A stretch of 24,157 bases of DNA from a virus (IMGVR_UViG_3300006919_000434:1-24157); one strand, 5' to 3'; counted from the stretch's first letter, positions 2,407 to 24,157 are shown. Numbers and translations: made by a program. Notes: generated by a model not told the origin, from the sequence alone.

Positions 2407-2812
2407 TCTCTGCGACAAGCCTCGCAAGACCCGTAAAGGCTGGGACGTATGCTGCCCAGTACATGGCGAGACAAATCCAAGCATGGGCCTAACCATCGGC
2501 CGCAATGGAGACATCATTGCAAACTGCTTTGCGTGTGGCGCTAACGGCATGGACCTTGCTGAAGCACTAGGAATCAGCAAGTCAGAACTTTTCGCCAAGC
2601 CCCTTGAGAGAACCCAAGACAAAAACTGGAAACTCAACTCAACGCGTGATGCAGATGACTGGTTTATAGTTATACACGAGAGCGCCATAAAACGCGGCGA
2701 GAAGCCACGCTATGATGATATGGTTGAATATAAGCGAGCAATGGCTAGAAGAGCTCAGAGGTCCTCTCTGGGGCTAGAACAGACAATAATAGACGTAGGT
2801 TTAGAAGCATGA
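2384..2812 (+). CDS. CHC2 zinc-finger protein (primase ZBD-like, no Toprim domain)
   Basis: CCPVHGETNPS...CFACG matches the DnaG-type CHC2 pattern. Only 142 aa long. Overlaps the helicase stop. Confidence 0.8.
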   Translation: MHIDELANLCDKPRKTRKGWDVCCPVHGETNPSMGLTIGRNGDIIANCFACGANGMDLAEALGISKSELFAKPLERTQDKNWKLNSTRDADDWFIVIHESAIKRGEKPRYDDMVEYKRAMARRAQRSSLGLEQTIIDVGLEA

Positions 2813-3009
2813 TCGACAACACAGTAACAAAACAAAAGCAGCAGGCAATTTTAGATCAGCACAAGGCTGAATATCTGGCGAAAGGCGGCAAGATAACCGT
2901 GGTGCCCTCACAGACCTTTGGAAAGGGTTACAATGACTCGGTGATTACTCGAATGGTTTATTCAAGAGATTCTATTCTTGTCGAGAAAAAGAGCAAATGC
3001 GATGAGTAG
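2809..3009 (+). CDS. small protein with a SutA-like RNA-polymerase-binding motif
   Basis: A helix followed by EYLAKGGKITVV resembles the recalled Pseudomonas SutA core (EFLxRGGKVQEI). ATGA coupling to the upstream gene. Confidence 0.55.
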   Translation: MIDNTVTKQKQQAILDQHKAEYLAKGGKITVVPSQTFGKGYNDSVITRMVYSRDSILVEKKSKCDE

Positions 3010-5395: not shown

Positions 5396-7636
5396 ATGGC
5401 TACATACGAAAACGGATACGAAGAAAAGGAAGAGTCGGCTGAATACACCGAAGACGATCTGTCCTACAAGGATAATTACGACGATCACAAGAACGTAATT
5501 GATCTGCTTAGCTCTTGCCAACAGGCTGACCATGATAACCGAGAGATGGCCCGAGAGGCCCACTTATTTGCGGATAAGCGTGACGGTCAGTGGGAACCAT
5601 ACTGGTGGAACTCAAACCAGAACAAGCCTCGCTACACGTTTGATCAAGTCAACCCTATTATTTCTCAGGTCTCATCTGAGATTGAGCAGGCTGACTTTGA
5701 CATCCGTGTCAGCCCAGCCGGCGGCAATGCCACTAAGGACGTTGCTGCTACCTACGACGGCATAATCCGAAACATTGAGAACATCTCTAACGCTAAGCAG
5801 ATATACGCTCAGTCTTGCCGTGGCATGATCACTAGCGGATTTGACGCATGGCGTGTCTGCCAGAAGTACGCGGATGACAATAGCTTTGACCAAGACATCG
5901 TGATTGAGAAGATTGCGAATCCATTGGACCGCGTCTGGTTTGATCCAGCAGCGGAAAAGCAAGACAAGTCAGATGCACGTTACGCGTTCGTGTTGCATCC
6001 TATGGCGGTCAACGAGTACAAGAGCCGCTGGCCAGAGGGCTCCGAAGAGTCTGTGACTGATGACCGTGAAGGCGACGCATACTACGACAAGGCAGAGGTC
6101 ATTGTTGTTGGCGAGTTTCTCTACGTTGAATCAGAAGACCGTGAGCTGGTCATGATGTCTAATGGACAGACTCACGAGGTCAATGAGGACTACGATAAGA
6201 TCAAAGACGATCTAGAAGCTATCGGCGTCACCGAGGTCCGTCGTCGCAAGCGCAAGATGCACAAGGTCTGCTCTCGCTACTTTGACGGCAAGGACTGGCT
6301 CGAAGATGACAAGGACACGGTATTCAACCGAATCCCTGTCGTTCCTGTTTACGGCAACTTCAAGGTATTCGAGAATAAGACTATCTACTGGGGTGTGGTA
6401 GAGAAGCTACTGGACCCGCAGCGCGTTCTGAACTACGCACTGAGCCGTGAGATCGAAGAGGGCGCACTAGCACCAAGAGCCAAATACTGGATGACTCCTG
6501 CACAAGCGGCAGGGCATGAGGACCAGCTTGCAACGCTAAACACCAACAGCGATCCGGTGCAGTTCTTTAACCCTGATCCTGAGTTCCCAGCTGTGCCCCA
6601 GCAGCAAGGCGGCGCTCAGGTTAACGGCGGTCTAAGGACTATTGCTCAGGCAATGCAGGGCATGATGAACGCAACGTCTGGTATGTTTGCGGCGAACATG
6701 GGCGACAACCCCAACGCGCAATCAGGCGTTGCTATTCGTCAGCTTCAAAACAAAGGCGACAATGCCACCTACCAGTACACCAGAGCGCTTGAGATAGCTA
6801 TCACGGCAACCGGCAATCTGATCAAGGATGCTATCCCTAAGGTCTACGACACAGAGCGCACAGTGCGCGTCCTGAGAGAAGATGAAAGCTACGACATGGC
6901 AGACATCAACCAGAAGGTCATAGACAACGCCACCGGCGAGATTGTGGTGGTCAATGATCTATCTGTGGGCACATACGATGTGATCTGTCGTGCAGGACCT
7001 AGCTTCCGCAACCGCCAGCAAGAAACATTAGAGGCAATCACTAATCTTGCCAAGGTGGACCCGTCTCTCATGCAGATCGCCGGAGACCTGTTGTTGCAGA
7101 ATGTGAACACTCCGGCAGCTACGCAGATGGCTGAGCGCAAGCGAGCGCAGATGCTACAGCAAGGCTTGATCCCGCAGTCACAAATGACTGAAGAAGAGCT
7201 CATGCAGCTACAGCAGGCTCAAATGGCAGCACAGGGCCAGCAGCAGCCTGACGCAGCAATGGTCCTAGCACAAGCTGAGCAGATGAAAGCTCAGGCAGAA
7301 ATGATACGGGCTCAGATAGAGCAAGCTAAGCTTCAGAATGAGCAGATGAAATTGCAGATAGAAGCTCAGAAGCTACAGACGCAGACTGTCGGCGATCAAG
7401 CAGACAACCAGATCGACGCATTCAACGCGCAGACCAAGCGCATAGAGGCCGAGATCAAGGCGCAGCAAGCCGGTGCAACGATTGATAACACAGCGGCCAA
7501 GACAATGGGCGAAGAGTTAGACAATCAAAAGAAGATGTCTGACTTAATGGATGAGCAGATGCGTAAAGCGCAAATGACTCAGCTGTCTGATTTTGATCTA
7601 GCGAGGATTGCGTCCGGTGCCACTTCCATTAGCTAA
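5396..7636 (+). CDS. portal protein, P22 gp1-like
   Basis: 746 aa directly after TerL. Motifs VWFDP, IPVVPVYG, GVVEKLLDPQRVLN, SGVAI, GTYDV...GPSF, and a Gln-rich C-terminal coiled-coil barrel. Confidence 0.93.
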   Translation: MATYENGYEEKEESAEYTEDDLSYKDNYDDHKNVIDLLSSCQQADHDNREMAREAHLFADKRDGQWEPYWWNSNQNKPRYTFDQVNPIISQVSSEIEQADFDIRVSPAGGNATKDVAATYDGIIRNIENISNAKQIYAQSCRGMITSGFDAWRVCQKYADDNSFDQDIVIEKIANPLDRVWFDPAAEKQDKSDARYAFVLHPMAVNEYKSRWPEGSEESVTDDREGDAYYDKAEVIVVGEFLYVESEDRELVMMSNGQTHEVNEDYDKIKDDLEAIGVTEVRRRKRKMHKVCSRYFDGKDWLEDDKDTVFNRIPVVPVYGNFKVFENKTIYWGVVEKLLDPQRVLNYALSREIEEGALAPRAKYWMTPAQAAGHEDQLATLNTNSDPVQFFNPDPEFPAVPQQQGGAQVNGGLRTIAQAMQGMMNATSGMFAANMGDNPNAQSGVAIRQLQNKGDNATYQYTRALEIAITATGNLIKDAIPKVYDTERTVRVLREDESYDMADINQKVIDNATGEIVVVNDLSVGTYDVICRAGPSFRNRQQETLEAITNLAKVDPSLMQIAGDLLLQNVNTPAATQMAERKRAQMLQQGLIPQSQMTEEELMQLQQAQMAAQGQQQPDAAMVLAQAEQMKAQAEMIRAQIEQAKLQNEQMKLQIEAQKLQTQTVGDQADNQIDAFNAQTKRIEAEIKAQQAGATIDNTAAKTMGEELDNQKKMSDLMDEQMRKAQMTQLSDFDLARIASGATSIS

Positions 7637-10600
7637 AGAGCAACAATTAGACCAGCTCCTTGCCATCAGGGAGCTGGAGAATAGGGGTCGAGGCGACGCA
7701 GCCAGAGCGATTCAGGAAAGCGGAAAGATACCTGATGACCTTGAGTACGGCGAGTTCGTAAAGGCGGCTAGGGCTGCCTATGGTCCAGCAGCGTTCTATG
7801 CGGCAGGCGGCAGGGATATTCTGCCTTACGTCTACGATTACCTCAAAGAAACGTCAATTGAGGATATAGGCGAAGATGTCTATAACTTCGGCGCAGGCGT
7901 TGCTCAAGACATCAAAGAGAACCCGCTTAGAACAGCGCTGGACTTCGTACCTTACATCGGCGCTATTGCCGGAGGCGGTGAGTCTTTTATCCTTGCCGAG
8001 CAAACACGCAAAGCCGCTGAGCGAGCTAAGGCAGCCGGTGACACAAAAGAATACGAGAAGCTTAGAGCTCTAGCCGCATCAATGATGACCGGCGCTTTGA
8101 TTCCTGCATTCGGCAAGAGGGCCCCAGACAAGCTTGACATAATCCAGAAAAGTGATCGTTACAAGGATGTGCCAGCAGAGCAGATGACCCGCGAGATGCA
8201 GGCAGAAGCTGCAATGGATACGGTCAACCAAGCGCTGGTAGCAGACATAGATGAGTTTGTTCCTTTGGCTGGTGCGCCGAAATTTGAAGGCCCATTGGCA
8301 ATGGGTGGAGTCAATCTTCTAAATAATCGGTTCGCTATATTTTCAGCGGAAAGAGGTGATTTAACTCCAGAAGAAAACACAGAACGAACTAGGAAAATGG
8401 CTAGAGAGCTGTTGCTTGAGTTCGGTCCTGATAAAGTCTCAATGGTTAAAGGCGTTTACGGAAGTCCTGAGCGCTCTTTCATTGTCCAAGACATAGACCC
8501 AATAAAAGCCAGAAACTACGGCGACAGATACGATCAGGACTCTGTATTCACTGATCGTGGCCTGATTTATAGCAAGGGCAATACAGAAGGCTTGTACGGT
8601 CAAGGCGTTCCCATAAAGCCTCAGATAGACTCAATGGGCAGACCTCAATACAAGGCCATCATTGACCCAGACTCAACTAACTTTTTTACGGATATAACCA
8701 CAGCCAGAGGCGAGCCTATCCGGTTCAGGTTTGACTTAGAAGAAAATGAGATGTTCTCACTGCCTTCTGGTGACCTGACGCCATCTTCAACAACTGGTGT
8801 GCAGTTTAGCAGGCAGCCTAACATTACGACGGCAGACCCAAACTACTACGGGACCGGCGCAAGAGGCGAAGAATCAAATAGGATAAAGTACGAGGGTGCA
8901 CCGCTACGCACCTATTTCTACCGCCCAACCGGCGATCCGGCTGCGGTAAGGCCAGAAGCTATTGTCCCCAGCGATAACAGGTACGTTACTCAGCTGCGTG
9001 AACTCTATGACGTTCAGAGAGACCCAGAGGGCCTAAGATCGTTTTCCAAGGGCCCAACAGACCTAGAGCAGATGATTCAGTCTAGGGGCTACAGAGGGCT
9101 GATGTCTGACGAAATGGCAAACCCTAGTATGGGCAGAGAAGGCAGTGCGCTATCGTTCTATCGTGAGCCTGTCACAAGCCTTGATACTGCTACTGCGCTT
9201 GGAGGACTACCACCAACCCCGCCACCTCAATACATTCAAAAAAAGCCAGCAATTCAAGCTCTCGGCGGCGATCTTAATATAGATCCAAGGACGTTTAACG
9301 CGGGCGCTGGTAGCAATTCAGGCGTGGGCAGAACAAGAGACATGGACCGGATAAGAAATCTGCAAGTTCAGTATGAGGACCGCCGGCCGTCTCAAGACAA
9401 CATTATCAGACTGCAAGACTTTGAGGGCTATCCTTTCGTGCTCTCAATGTCAGACAGGAGCATGGCTGGCAACAGGATAGCCAACATTAACGGCATCCCT
9501 ATCGGCCATACCACAAGGGGCGGCATGGGCCATATGGGTGACCCGCTAAACGCTGATACTTTGTGGCGAGCTACAGAAGCCGGAGTGACCGGATCTAAGT
9601 CGTCAATACTTGATATGTCTAGGGCTTTGACAGGGCAGGGTGGTCCTAACCCGTTATTCCTACCTGTAAACATGAGCCCAACTGGCGGCGACTTCTCATC
9701 TCAGGTGGCAACGCCGATGCTCAAGTACAACAGAGCCAAACTAAGCGACGTTGACTTGGATGACATGGACGCAGATATTGCTGAAATAATTCCTAGCTGG
9801 AAAGGAATTAGAAACGATGAGTCATTGACTAATTTATACTCAGCAACCGGCGATCAGCGAAAAGCGGTACTAGACTTGCTAGATAAGAAGTACGCTCTTC
9901 GTGGCGGGTTAACCTTGGCTGAAGCCAGAACAGCTGCAACAGATACGCGCTTGCTTCAAGCTCCTGACGGGGCTGTTATCTCGGCTGGTCGACTAGATCC
10001 TGAGCGCGGTTATAGCTTGAGCCCTGAGTATGATGTCTACCCTGCCGGCGTTTACGGCAGCCCATTAGGCAACTTTGATCAGCAGTATCAAATGTTTGAA
10101 TTCTTGCCTGATATTGTTCAAGAGGGTGGATTCGATCCAATGCTGCCGCCACGCAATCAGCTCAGAAAGATCGAGACAGGAGCTATGGGCGGACGCATAA
10201 CTGAAGACATACTTCGAGGCATGGAGGATCGTAGAACGGCTCCTGTGTCTTCTGAGACGTTCTCAGGACCTACTAGACCTAAGTCGGCGCTAAATGATCT
10301 TCTTGATCCCAATAGAATCCCAGAAAAAACACAGACTGCTTATAAGTTATTCCGAACTGATGCTGAGGGTAATTTGTATCCATTGTTCGTTAACGCGAAC
10401 CAGAAGATACCAATGAATGAGTGGCTGCCGGCAGAAGCTGGAGAAATGACTGGAAATAAAGTGAAATCCAAAATAGGTCCTCTGGCATTTAGGGCTGGTT
10501 GGCACTCTGGTGATTTACCTATAGCTACTCATATTGGAGAAAAATACGATCCCGCTACAATGCAAAAAGACAAGACAATGAAAGCGCCGAACGTAAGGCC

Positions 10601-10907
10601 AGACAATCAGGTATGGGCTGAGGTTGAAATGCCCGCTGATTACGATTGGCAAACCGAAGCAATGAATAGAGCCGAAAGGACAAAGGCTGGGAAAATAATA
10701 CCGCGCACAGCTCACATTACTGACCAAGTTCCCTATGGCGGTCATTACAGGTACAAAACCAACCCTAATATGACTGGAGAATGGTTAATAGGTGGGCAAA
10801 TGAAGGTAAACCGCATCCTAAGTGATGATGAGGTCAAAAGGATAAATGATGCCGCTGGTGTAGCAGATCTGCCGAGATTGTCAGCGTTGAGAAATTTAGA
10901 GGATTAA
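7617..10907 (+). CDS. large multidomain (polyvalent) protein: N-terminal helical region, SAM-lyase-like domain, ART-like domain, two uncharacterised domains
   Basis: Open frame of 1099 codons from TTG 7608; GAGGA at 7603-7607 favours GTG 7617. Domains are recognised from motifs (see findings) and separated by Pro-rich linkers. Confidence 0.85.
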   Translation: MPLPLAKEQQLDQLLAIRELENRGRGDAARAIQESGKIPDDLEYGEFVKAARAAYGPAAFYAAGGRDILPYVYDYLKETSIEDIGEDVYNFGAGVAQDIKENPLRTALDFVPYIGAIAGGGESFILAEQTRKAAERAKAAGDTKEYEKLRALAASMMTGALIPAFGKRAPDKLDIIQKSDRYKDVPAEQMTREMQAEAAMDTVNQALVADIDEFVPLAGAPKFEGPLAMGGVNLLNNRFAIFSAERGDLTPEENTERTRKMARELLLEFGPDKVSMVKGVYGSPERSFIVQDIDPIKARNYGDRYDQDSVFTDRGLIYSKGNTEGLYGQGVPIKPQIDSMGRPQYKAIIDPDSTNFFTDITTARGEPIRFRFDLEENEMFSLPSGDLTPSSTTGVQFSRQPNITTADPNYYGTGARGEESNRIKYEGAPLRTYFYRPTGDPAAVRPEAIVPSDNRYVTQLRELYDVQRDPEGLRSFSKGPTDLEQMIQSRGYRGLMSDEMANPSMGREGSALSFYREPVTSLDTATALGGLPPTPPPQYIQKKPAIQALGGDLNIDPRTFNAGAGSNSGVGRTRDMDRIRNLQVQYEDRRPSQDNIIRLQDFEGYPFVLSMSDRSMAGNRIANINGIPIGHTTRGGMGHMGDPLNADTLWRATEAGVTGSKSSILDMSRALTGQGGPNPLFLPVNMSPTGGDFSSQVATPMLKYNRAKLSDVDLDDMDADIAEIIPSWKGIRNDESLTNLYSATGDQRKAVLDLLDKKYALRGGLTLAEARTAATDTRLLQAPDGAVISAGRLDPERGYSLSPEYDVYPAGVYGSPLGNFDQQYQMFEFLPDIVQEGGFDPMLPPRNQLRKIETGAMGGRITEDILRGMEDRRTAPVSSETFSGPTRPKSALNDLLDPNRIPEKTQTAYKLFRTDAEGNLYPLFVNANQKIPMNEWLPAEAGEMTGNKVKSKIGPLAFRAGWHSGDLPIATHIGEKYDPATMQKDKTMKAPNVRPDNQVWAEVEMPADYDWQTEAMNRAERTKAGKIIPRTAHITDQVPYGGHYRYKTNPNMTGEWLIGGQMKVNRILSDDEVKRINDAAGVADLPRLSALRNLED

Positions 10908-11077
10908 TCGGCACCAGCTAAAAGCCGGACCTTTTCTTCTATTTCTTCTTGTATCTCTTCGCACTCTTCAAACTCACCATAAGCGTGAGCAAGGATTGCT
11001 TGATTTACAAGGCTAACAATATCGTCGGCTATCTGATCAGGATCATCGGTTTCAAATAAGTCTATGATCTTATTCAT
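10904..11077 (-). CDS. 57-aa acidic protein (not in the ORF track)
   Basis: MNKIIDLFETDDPDQIADDIVSLVNQAILAHAYGEFEECEEIQEEIEEKVRLLAGAD*. AGGTG RBS-like sequence and a promoter lie upstream. Its stop overlaps the stop of the large gene (TTAA, 10904-10907). Confidence 0.75.
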   Translation of the reverse strand: MNKIIDLFETDDPDQIADDIVSLVNQAILAHAYGEFEECEEIQEEIEEKVRLLAGAD

Positions 11078-11105: not shown

Positions 11106-11135
11106 ATTATACCTATATATTGATTTTTTTGTGAA
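11106..11135 (-). promoter_or_regulatory. sigma70-like promoter for the antisense ORF
   Basis: On the minus strand: TTCACA (11135-11130), 18-nt spacer, TATAAT (11111-11106). Confidence 0.6.
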
Positions 11136-11150
11136 TATGTTATAATTCAC
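11120..11150 (+). promoter_or_regulatory. extended -10 promoter for scaffold/coat, inside an inverted repeat
   Basis: TGT-TATAAT at 11138-11146 and TTGATT at 11120-11125. Dyad GTGAAT-N8-ATTCAC at 11131-11150. Confidence 0.6.
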
Positions 11151-11198: not shown

Positions 11199-12029
11199 AT
11201 GAGCGAGCTGCAACCAGAAGACAACTACGCGTACGAATCCGAGGACGACGTAACCACGGAGACAGAGGTAGTAGAAACTGAAGATTCTGCGGAGGCGCAG
11301 GATTCCGATTCAGCACCGGAGACTGAGGATACTCAGGATAAACAGGTCAAGTTCGACGAGCAACAGCAACGCATATTTGATGAGGCTGTAGGTAAGAAGG
11401 TATTCAAGCTCAGAGAGAAAGAGCGAGAAGCTGAAGCCTATAAAAAACAGCTTGAAGAATTGCAGGCGAAGCTCGGCGAGAAGCAGGCCCCAAAAGTTCC
11501 TGACTTGCCAGATCCTTTTGCGGTATCAGAATATGAATATCGCCAAAGTCTGCAAATGAGGGAGAAGGCCCTGCAAGATGCTGCTAGGTATGAATTTGAG
11601 CAGCAAGCAATTCGGCAGCAGCAAGAACAAATGCGGCAGCAGGAATTGTTAAAGCAGCAGGAAGAGCTAACAGAAAAGGTAAGCTCTTACTCTAAGCGGG
11701 CAACTAAGTTAGGTATCTCTTCGGAGGAACTACAAGAAGCAGGAAACACGGTGGCGCAGTTCGGCATAGACGAGTCACTGGTTAATGTGATTTTAGAAGA
11801 CGATTACGGTCCTCTGATCACAAAGTACCTGTCTAAGAACCCGCTTGAACTTGATACGTTGCGACAACTACCGCCAGCTCACGCAGCGGTAAGAGTAGCT
11901 ACATTAATCAAGGAGAAAGCTGCATCGCTTAAACCCAAGGTAAATAACGCTCCTGATCCTTTGGAGCAGCCACACGGCGCTGGTACGGCTCCCAAACCTA
12001 GAGGGCCAAAAGGTGCCACATTTGAATAG
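11199..12029 (+). CDS. capsid scaffolding protein
   Basis: Acidic N-terminus, coiled-coil middle, Pro-rich basic C-tail. Immediately upstream of the coat gene. AAGGGG RBS. Confidence 0.85.
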   Translation: MSELQPEDNYAYESEDDVTTETEVVETEDSAEAQDSDSAPETEDTQDKQVKFDEQQQRIFDEAVGKKVFKLREKEREAEAYKKQLEELQAKLGEKQAPKVPDLPDPFAVSEYEYRQSLQMREKALQDAARYEFEQQAIRQQQEQMRQQELLKQQEELTEKVSSYSKRATKLGISSEELQEAGNTVAQFGIDESLVNVILEDDYGPLITKYLSKNPLELDTLRQLPPAHAAVRVATLIKEKAASLKPKVNNAPDPLEQPHGAGTAPKPRGPKGATFE

Positions 12030-22565: not shown

Positions 22566-24157
22566 ATGGCACGATTCGGCGATTTTGATCAATACTTAGA
22601 TGACGCTGGCGATCCTTTAGTACAAGGAAAGCTATACTTTTACGAGTCTGGCACAACAACACCAAAGACTACCTATGCCGACATCAACAACTCAATCCCG
22701 AACACTAACCCTGTTCTGTTGTCTGCTGCTGGCCGTCAACCAAACATTTTCTTCGACGGCGTTGCTAAGGTTATCCTGACTGATAACAATGACGTGCAGA
22801 TTGCAGTGCGTGACCCAGCAGGTGAGACTGGCACAGACTTTGGTGACGCATGGGTAGCCACTAAGATATACAGCGCTCTAGACGTAGTTCTGGGCTCAGA
22901 TGGCATTTATTACCGTTCACTTGTTAATGGTAACCAGAACAATAACCCAGTCACCTCTACTGGATATTGGACCCTTTTATACTCAATCGAGTGGAATGCT
23001 GGGATAAGCTATAAAGAAGGATCTGTTGTCACTTATGATGGCGAGCAGTACCAAAGCCTGACCAATAGCAACTTGAATAACAATCCATCTACGAGTCCGT
23101 CTAACTGGACCTTGCTAAGCTTTGCGTGGATCTCTACTGCGACCTACGCAGACAACCAGAACGCAGTGGGTTCCGACGGCATCCTGTACACTTCTCAACA
23201 GGCAGCGAACACAGGAAACGATCCTACAAATGCTGCTAATCGCCCTACTTACTGGGTGGGAACATCTGCGGATGCAGCAGCCAGTGCAGCAGCAGCAGCG
23301 GCAAGCGAAACGGCAGCAGCGGCTAGTGAGGCAGCGGCGGCAGCATCGGAAACCGCAGCGGCAGCGAGTGAGACGGCAGCAGCAGCATCCGAGACAGCAG
23401 CAGCTTCTAGTGCTAGTGCAGCCTCTACAAGCGCCACAAATGCAGCTTCTAGCGCCTCAGCAGCTTCTACTTCTGAGACTAACGCAGCGGCAAGCGAAAC
23501 AGCGGCAGCAGCGAGTGCCAGTGCAGCCTCTACATCTGAAACGAATGCGGCAGCTAGTGCAAGTGCGGCTTCTACTTCTGAAACCAACGCAGCAGCTTCA
23601 GAAACAGCAGCAGCGGCTTCAGAAACGGCAGCAGCGGCCTCAGAGAGTGCAGCGGCTACTAGTGAGACTAATGCGGCTTCTAGCGCGTCAGCGGCTTCTA
23701 CAAGCGCCACAAACGCATCTACCTCAGAGACTAACGCAGCAAGTTCGGCTACAGCCGCAGCTAGTTCAGCTACAGCAGCAGCAGGGTCAGCTACAGCAGC
23801 GGCAGGATCGGCTACCGATGCAGCAGATAAATACGATGAGTTTGATGACCGTTACTTAGGTGAGAAGGCATCTGATCCTACATTAGACAATGACGGAAAC
23901 GCTTTAATCACTGGTGCGTTGTACTTCAACACCTCAACTACTGCGATGAAGGTTTACACAGGATCGGTCTGGCAGGACGTTGCACCTGTTGCGACATCAG
24001 TCACATTATCACAGGTAACAGACTTCCCGAGTCAGTCAGGTCAGTCAGGCAAGTATCTGTCTACCAACGGCACTACACCTTCGTGGGAGACTCTGACTAC
24101 AGACCCTACACTTGGCACACTAACCAAGACCTTCACTACTGGCGAGTCATCTACCAT
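22566..24157 (+). CDS. tail fibre/spike, 3'-truncated (not in the ORF track)
   Basis: ATG 22566 follows AGGA. MARFGDFDQYLDDAGDPLVQGKLYFYESGTTTPKTTYAD...NTNPVLL is a head-binding-type N-domain. It is followed by three CBM-like repeats, Ala/Ser heptads and FDDRYLG...DNDGNAL..GALYFNT. The frame is open to the window end. Confidence 0.88.
   Translation, partial: MARFGDFDQYLDDAGDPLVQGKLYFYESGTTTPKTTYADINNSIPNTNPVLLSAAGRQPNIFFDGVAKVILTDNNDVQIAVRDPAGETGTDFGDAWVATKIYSALDVVLGSDGIYYRSLVNGNQNNNPVTSTGYWTLLYSIEWNAGISYKEGSVVTYDGEQYQSLTNSNLNNNPSTSPSNWTLLSFAWISTATYADNQNAVGSDGILYTSQQAANTGNDPTNAANRPTYWVGTSADAAASAAAAAASETAAAASEAAAAASETAAAASETAAAASETAAASSASAASTSATNAASSASAASTSETNAAASETAAAASASAASTSETNAAASASAASTSETNAAASETAAAASETAAAASESAAATSETNAASSASAASTSATNASTSETNAASSATAAASSATAAAGSATAAAGSATDAADKYDEFDDRYLGEKASDPTLDNDGNALITGALYFNTSTTAMKVYTGSVWQDVAPVATSVTLSQVTDFPSQSGQSGKYLSTNGTTPSWETLTTDPTLGTLTKTFTTGESST
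23268..23813 (+). repeat. coding tandem repeat, 26 x 21 nt (heptads TAAAASE / SAASTSE / TNAASSA)
   Basis: Read directly from the sequence; Ser is invariant at heptad position 6. Confidence 0.9.

Follow-up and report, generated by a model that had tools for sequence, protein, structure and literature searches.

The window analysed here is the 24,157-nucleotide virus record IMGVR_UViG_3300006919_000434 (positions 1–24157), which has a completeness rating of 67%. Its genes run in the order terminase, P22-like portal, a 1099-codon open reading frame (ORF), scaffold, coat, gp4-like, gp10-like and three ejection-type genes. Our subject is the long ORF between portal and scaffold, hereafter the cargo gene, and the domain within its product that, by family score and residues, is an S-adenosylmethionine (SAM) lyase of the phage T3 type. 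A 36,209-bp (36.2 kb) record with terminal repeats, rated complete (G001), represents the same phage: 8 of 8 reference proteins are 100% identical to those of the window, and the window stretch 23000–24157 is also identical at 100%. The nearest cultured portal is that of Pseudoalteromonas phage H6/1 (40%), and a coat match of 48% was found in a Gilvimarinus genome. Neither a methyltransferase nor an integrase was found among the 20 + 27 translations scanned with Pfam (some small ORFs lay outside the scan), and Rfam gave no match anywhere in the window.

The start codon of the cargo gene is likely GTG at 7617 rather than the codon at 7608, judging from the sequence context. GTG 7617 lies 9 nt after a Shine-Dalgarno-like GAGGA, and a gene starting there overlaps the portal stop codon at 7634–7636; the protein collection contains the corresponding 1096-aa form, for which a Pfam lyase label had already been precomputed. 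Residue numbers below are nevertheless counted from 7608 (1099-codon ORF, 7608–10907), as in the initial annotation. The complete genome G001 holds no second or early lyase copy, the late-block gene being the sole one, and this single copy together with the overlap with the portal stop bears out the initial placing of the gene among late genes, between portal and scaffold, and not among early ones. The features of the locus are collected in Table 1.

Table 1. Features of the portal–scaffold region of the window; residue numbers are counted from nucleotide 7608.
Feature	Position	Strand	Basis and remarks
P22-like portal gene	5396..7636	+	Pfam PF16510, E 9e-148; stop codon 20 nt inside the cargo gene
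Shine-Dalgarno-like GAGGA before GTG 7617	7603..7607	+	Same GAGGA in 19/32 distinct portal/cargo junctions
Cargo gene (1096 aa), multidomain polyvalent-type protein in the portal–scaffold slot	7617..10907	+	Sequence, homologues, locus survey
N-terminal leader	7617..8306	+	29–30% BLAST matches to the leaders of L027 and L035; no Pfam family
SAM-lyase domain, T3 barrel type, aa about 240–380	8325..8747	+	PF23780, model, VIA, Foldseek
G282-x-Y284-x3-E288	8451..8471	+	Counterparts of T3 G55, Y57, E68 and of Svi3-3 G56, Y58, E69
Q310-D311	8535..8540	+	Counterparts of T3 Q94-D95 and of Svi3-3 Q104-E105
Domain D3, aa about 390–530, ART/RES-like fold	8775..9197	+	Structure matches at middling Z
Domain D4, aa 591–880	9378..10247	+	Recurs in slot proteins without lyase
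Domain D5, aa 900–1099	10305..10904	+	phrog_30118
57-aa acidic ORF, tail to tail with cargo gene	10904..11077	-	17 D/E against 3 K/R
Sigma-70-like promoter facing acidic ORF	11106..11135	-	11/12 consensus match
Extended -10-like element before scaffold gene	11138..11146	+	Seven invariant columns in 15/15 aligned gaps
Scaffolding protein gene, right border of slot	11199..12029	+	phrog_8865, E 4e-25

The initial annotation had read the domain as a T3 gp0.3-like SAM lyase from three motifs, and all three translate in frame at the positions given for them: FAIFSAER from 8331, followed after six residues by EN..R, GVYGSPERSF at 8451–8480 and YDQDSVF at 8529–8549. The family assignment was upheld by the Pfam score, the profile search, Foldseek and VIA. 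Pfam family PF23780 (S-AdoMet_lyase, cut-off 28 bits) matches the whole protein at 29.3 bits (E 1e-6) and the cut-out domain at 33.6 bits (E 4e-8), while a close relative (L004) reaches 27.2 bits, just below the cut-off; the domain also matches DUF3293, below the cut-off of that family. A single-sequence search of the PDB with the domain returned a designed protein only, and a profile of 13 homologues run against 177,635 PDB sequences gave T3 SAM lyase 7OCK as the better of two matches (E 0.0055).

Modelled with AlphaFold from the single sequence, the domain reached a predicted local distance difference test score (pLDDT) of 36; with a 42-row alignment the pLDDT was 93 and the predicted template modelling score (pTM) 0.89, for a two-domain model spanning aa 234–530. 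The Foldseek comparison proposed in the initial annotation gave T3 SAM lyase as the best structure match over the whole domain: the top five PDB matches were T3 SAM lyase chains (best E 4e-5), and Svi3-3 and a SAM-AMP lyase ranked 47 and 49 at E 0.5. VIA aligned the model (residues 1–144) with T3 structure 8BB1 at Z 12.9 over 127 residues, with a root-mean-square deviation of 3.5; Svi3-3 aligned at Z 6.0 over 87 residues, limited to model residues 1–95, and the SAM-AMP lyase at Z 3.8 over 81. In a wider structure search of 48,161 chains, 7OCK alone reached Z >=8 (Z 11.7, 125 aligned). The predicted fold of the domain is thus the alpha/beta barrel of the T3 type.

The profile alignment pairs the five residues of the two motifs listed in Table 1 with their T3 counterparts, and the T3 residue numbers counted from this alignment coincide with the mutant positions named in the literature. 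Across 63 domain rows, which take in the window's protein twice and four close relatives, the glycine is kept in 63/63, the tyrosine in 62/63, the glutamate in 61/63, the glutamine in 63/63 and an aspartate or glutamate at the last position in 62/63. The T3 double mutant E68Q/Q94A made no methylthioadenosine (MTA) (bioRxiv 2023.02.27.530186), and Svi3-3 E69Q lost activity about 4500-fold (PMC7877911). The lyase domain is under purifying selection, its ratio of nonsynonymous to synonymous substitution rates (dN/dS) being about 0.04–0.13 in three pairs of relatives; between the window and L004 and L006 the proportion of nonsynonymous differences (pN) is 0.085–0.10, with that of synonymous differences (pS) saturated. 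On this combination of family, predicted fold and retained residues, the domain probably cleaves SAM.

T3 gp0.3 (PDB 8BB1, 7OCK; PF23780) resembles the window domain in fold and in the G, Y, E68, Q94 and D95 positions, but differs in setting: it is a 152-aa early protein, transcribed first, that also binds MetK, whereas the window domain is an internal part of a late-block protein. The loop after the QD motif, which in T3 bears the MetK contacts Q103/T104/H105, has 4 residues in the window against 10 in T3, and the MetK-binding N-terminal tail of T3 is replaced by the fusion. With these parts missing, MetK inhibition by the window domain appears unlikely, leaving catalysis alone. When bound to MetK, T3 SAMase forms a nine-stranded barrel as a monomer, and the free enzyme is dimeric (bioRxiv 2023.02.27.530186). 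The initial annotation had stated that SAM lyases work as trimers, which would oligomerise the whole protein. This does not hold for T3 SAMase, which the window matches over 127 residues, against 87 for Svi3-3, and a T3-like barrel does not imply trimerisation of the whole protein.

The trimeric lyases are less close. Svi3-3 (PDB 6ZM9, 6ZNB; PMC7877911) shares with the window a ferredoxin-like core and the G, Y, E, S, Q and acidic residues, but is an obligate trimer with active sites between subunits, and its fold match stops at model residue 95. In its native gene, Svi3-3 could also be one portion of a longer protein. The SAM-AMP lyases (Clostridium botulinum 9GAB/9GAD; candidate AcrIIIB4) have the E and Q catalytic pair of the window domain, but are PII-like trimers whose substrate is SAM-AMP, not SAM (PMC12255297). 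Their conserved Cys66 is dispensable for activity (PMC12255297) and has no counterpart in the window lyase domain, which contains no cysteine.

The surroundings of the domain were assessed in relatives gathered by a portal search, with 75 loci taken from the best 80 of 201 matching stretches. The portal ran off the contig end in 13 loci, too little downstream DNA was available in 3, and 59 had an ORF in the slot after the portal, amounting to 40 distinct sequences. Both borders of the slot were visible in 43 loci, and all 43 held one forward ORF of 428–1099 aa. The lyase was present in 12 of these 43 and in 15 of the 59 slot ORFs, three of the latter being identical to that of the window. A Pfam scan of 28 slot proteins identified LPD23 in 3, ART-PolyVal in 5 (two above the cut-off), zeta kinase in 2 and lyase or DUF3293 in 6. 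The lyase label takes 3 changes on a quickly built portal tree (37 rows), against an average of 9.7 in shuffles, and the window's portal clusters with 10 lyase-free rows (support 96). More distant P22-like phages have an empty slot (Vibrio phage 234P9 and loci L094, L096 and L098), and in phage H6/1 it is occupied by four small leftward genes. Since the slot is empty in distant phages and changes its content among close ones, the ORF within it is best described as accessory cargo. The initial term "head-module protein" is therefore to be revised, the protein not being a core head part but occupying a slot whose content varies and is sometimes missing. The lyase domain probably belongs to a set of interchangeable anti-defence cargoes.

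The leader that precedes the domain contains a Gly/Ala-rich, mildly hydrophobic segment pair at about aa 111–169 (nt 7938–8114, by hydropathy peaks). Under a low hydropathy threshold, which does not amount to a membrane prediction, such a segment lies within the first 270 aa in 33 of 40 distinct slot proteins and further on in 3 of 37. A leader profile made from 12 sequences, the window's included, matches 28 of the 40 slot proteins. The leader may thus be a loading or translocation part. A likeness to the pre-toxin TG domain found no support, no such Pfam match appearing at E up to 5 among nine leader sequences. Separately, a small stand-alone ORF before the terminase of another locus (L003:3105–3434) resembles, by eye, an insert in the leader of the L057–L060 slot genes (aa 25–120 in L057).

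Several domains of unlike biochemistry are joined in the cargo protein (the lyase, the ART/RES-like fold, D4 and D5), each shuffled independently among relatives. D3 follows the lyase in all 15 lyase-bearing slot proteins. Its structure matches are of middling Z (7.8 for NatT, 6.7 for MbcT and 5.9 for the AcrIF11-type anti-CRISPR 6KYF), and its atlas similarity is 0.88 to clusters with ART-PolyVal in 12–24% of members; profile–profile comparison with six ART-PolyVal domains was weak (1% probability, E 0.05). The ART-like region of the cyanophage A4 pre-ejectosome was considered as a D3 relative and set aside, as Z 4.2 was too weak to use. The window's D3 has glutamine at position 399 (8802–8804), where the other 15 of 16 aligned homologues have a strand-1 histidine. 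This is not a read error, because the same protein occurs in three other contigs at 100%, and with Q399 in place of histidine the window's D3 may be impaired. D4 has no Pfam or PHROG match, and its best atlas similarity is 0.77. D5 is absent from the four closest protein relatives and present at 41% in roseobacter phage CRP-212 gp38. Compared with aa 487–685 of P0007, the window's D5 scores E 3e-119, a near-identical score, while their lyase domains are 46% alike; D5 in these two proteins is a recent module exchange.

Three further elements lie between the cargo and scaffold genes. Of the 48 gaps examined, 29 contain a homologue of the 57-aa acidic ORF bearing a conserved FETDDP.Q motif, whether or not the lyase is present; the ORF has no Pfam or PHROG match, and its product might serve as an early DNA mimic or as an antidote against the cargo. 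The sigma-70-like site facing it is to be taken as a consensus match only, since the scan found 5 such sites against 9.2 expected by shuffle. In front of the scaffold and coat genes, on the opposite strand (11120–11146, +), a conserved TTGATT-like box stands 15 nt upstream of the extended -10 element; the short spacing from box to -10 may mark an activator-dependent late promoter. Because the extended -10-like element is invariant before the scaffold gene, the cargo gene appears to group with the terminase and portal genes and not with coat. One RNA run contained 6% of words, and short contigs, not to be taken as transcripts, touch 10015–10323. Elsewhere in the phage, a 66-aa ORF at window 2809–3009 gave a weak match to the RNA polymerase-binding domain of SutA (E 2.5e-4, below the cut-off), and the complete genome encodes a 395-aa calcineurin-like phosphoesterase after the tail fibre gene (L088:5025–6212).

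Embedded lyase domains are not confined to this slot. Among 1.84 billion representatives searched, 57 matched the lyase domain; of these, 11 are <=260 aa, 30 are >=1000 aa and 17 are >=2000 aa, though some may be fragments. D3 was found in 27 of the 57, 13 of these 27 lying outside the profile-building set. Pfam scanning covered 49 representatives (all except 7 short ones and P0003): 11 carry ART-PolyVal or LPD22 and 9 carry DUF7178, DUF3293 covers the same stretch as the lyase domain in most homologues scanned, and a 3802-aa protein has a lytic transglycosylase at its N-terminus. One 2833-aa protein (P0026) has two lyase-domain copies. The domain also matches 68 elemo phage records, with the gene labelled "structural protein" in GenBank in the 50 matches listed; the elemo protein examined has 3667 aa and keeps G, Y, E and Q. 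Locus scans with P0012, P0023 and P0016 recovered no locus with a lyase.

This architecture recalls the polyvalent proteins, which are encoded among late genes (Iyer et al. 2017, PMC5512222) and, like the cargo gene, combine unlike enzyme domains in one chain in a late or virion-gene context (PMC5512222). For one of them, phi24B gp47, proteomics has shown the presence of the protein in virions (bioRxiv 10.64898/2026.04.10.717836). Their ART-PolyVal, LPD and zeta-kinase domains occur in slot-mates and homologues of the window protein, which itself has no LPD, ART-PolyVal, MPTase or MuF domain above the Pfam threshold; the window gene also differs in being a medium-sized extra in a P22-like phage whose own ejection genes are retained. 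The closest parallel in layout is CRP-212 gp38 (UAW59004.1; L085:10993–14604), a 1203-aa gene flanked by the portal and by the gene that precedes coat, which shares D5 and a similar Gly/Ala-rich stretch but carries DUF7178 and no lyase. Limnohabitans phage DC33, filed under Inoviridae despite its 39 kb, encodes a 3125-aa protein (gp45, L081:5201–14578) with LPD22, ART-PolyVal and D3 and without lyase. The main text of PMC5512222 makes no mention of SAM or S-adenosyl, although its supplements may list the domain under another name. A literature search found no description of a SAM lyase as part of a polyvalent or virion protein (subscription papers and Jerlstrom-Hultqvist 2018 were outside its reach) and no paper on DUF3293; the nearest case is a phage SAM-AMP lyase fused to a further domain (PMC12255297). 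The enzyme family and the polyvalent strategy are each known, and their combination and the portal–scaffold slot were not found in print.

We tentatively favour, at a little under an even chance for the reading as a whole, a T3-type lyase carried as a portal-coupled cargo, delivered by the virion and cutting SAM against host defence. The cargo protein would likely be made together with the portal, and the leader would load it into the virion. At infection, the released lyase would cut SAM into MTA and homoserine lactone, and the loss of SAM would blunt SAM-dependent defences, such as type I restriction-modification (R-M), bacteriophage exclusion (BREX) and SAM-AMP signalling, before any phage gene is read. 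The predicted T3 barrel would suit an embedded domain, as a single chain could form the enzyme without a trimer. Taken separately, packaging and delivery are slightly favoured. A wider version, in which a family of P22-like phages uses a portal-joined cargo gene whose leader loads interchangeable enzymes, with the SAM lyase injected together with an ART/RES domain perhaps acting on nicotinamide adenine dinucleotide (NAD+), is possible but doubtful.

Several observations weigh against this virion-delivered lyase, above all the quantity of enzyme. A cellular SAM pool of 0.2 mM was assumed here, as were the cell volumes used with it. P22 injects 12–30 copies of each ejection protein (PMC8402733), Svi3-3 turns over 9.5 times per second (PMC7877911), and T3 makes about 10,000 lyase molecules (bioRxiv 2023.02.27.530186). 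For 12 copies at 9.5 per second, with 0.2 mM SAM and no resynthesis, the computed clearance time is 53 s at 0.05 fL, 211 s at 0.2 fL and 1056 s at 1 fL. Some 12 injected copies against T3's roughly 10,000 are the main weakness, and with so few, virion delivery would be plausible only if the cells are small, the action is local or the substrate is scarce, as SAM-AMP would be. Slot proteins also have more than one type of leader, the leader profile, run on 1229 ORFs of all loci, picked out no ejection protein, and Pfam found no MuF or portal fusion in the leader. The phage has three ejection-type genes of its own, a portal-coupled position is equally expected for an unpackaged gene, 14 of the 28 slot proteins scanned have no Pfam match, and the basis of the GenBank label of the elemo gene could not be confirmed. 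As to the enzyme itself, the lid between Tyr and Glu has 4 residues in the window against 11 in T3 and Svi3-3, and the corresponding hairpin encloses the ligand in Svi3-3 (PMC7877911). This shortening by 7 residues relative to T3 leaves the substrate in doubt.

An active SAM lyase that is not packaged, but made in bulk with terminase and portal and acting late in the producing cell, is the main alternative, unlikely by our estimate, and it draws on the same enzyme evidence (Pfam, profile and VIA). Lowered SAM would then damp defences triggered late, or leave progeny DNA unmethylated against modification-dependent restriction. Bulk expression removes the copy-number problem, the Pfam scans found no methyltransferase of the phage's own that SAM loss would harm, and effectors encoded near packaging genes might instead be directed against immunity that targets the portal or terminase (PMC9503650). 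However, type I R-M and BREX work at DNA entry, and the T3 lyase is made first (bioRxiv 2023.02.27.530186, PMC7877911). Late action also leaves unexplained why the leader persists while the cargo changes, and why the same domain sits in giant proteins with transglycosylase or LPD22 ends.

The short lid also raises the improbable case that the domain cuts another adenosyl compound, of which the type III CRISPR signal SAM-AMP is the most plausible, and so would be an anti-CRISPR like candidate AcrIIIB4. SAM and SAM-AMP lyases have only E and Q in common, the longer loop of SAM lyases, short in the window, would clash with AMP, and a phage SAM-AMP lyase fusion is already published (PMC12255297); a scarce signal could moreover be cleared by few injected copies. 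Yet the structural match is weak (Z 3.8 over 81 aligned residues; Foldseek E 0.5) and the conserved cysteine of these enzymes is missing from the domain. A lid almost as short, of 5 residues, is also found in the stand-alone PF23780 protein of Aeromonas phage Atoyac13, encoded among small genes before the primase.

We consider it quite improbable that the main role of the domain is to bind or sense SAM or MTA and to switch the ART/RES-fold domain next to it, both working as one module. The invariable succession of lyase and D3 in the 15 slot proteins, the presence of D3 in nearly half of the library representatives (27/57) and the two-domain model (pTM 0.89) would fit such a unit, but the lyase also occurs alone (the 11 representatives of <=260 aa), D3 occurs without it in L012, L015, L072 and DC33 gp45, and the catalytic residues are all retained, in contrast to the strand-1 histidine that the window's D3 has lost. 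A structural head component with a relic lyase fold would suit the position between portal and scaffold but is scarcely credible, given the slots left empty in 234P9, L094, L096 and L098 or filled by four small leftward genes in H6/1, the varying content and length (428–1099 aa) among close relatives, and active-site residues that are the best kept of all.

Under the favoured reading of a virion-delivered T3-type lyase, the finding would bear on how phages survive entry. The characterised T3 lyase comes from an early gene, which means that DNA entering the cell has to last until the enzyme is present; a packaged lyase, if true, closes this gap and would provide metabolic anti-restriction at DNA entry without gene expression. 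SAM destruction would then join the listed activities of polyvalent proteins, and the leader would be a natural means of loading proteins into podophage heads. The lyase identity also suggests a function for DUF3293, and the portal–scaffold slot, with similar leaders and different cargo in close relatives, constitutes a natural experiment.

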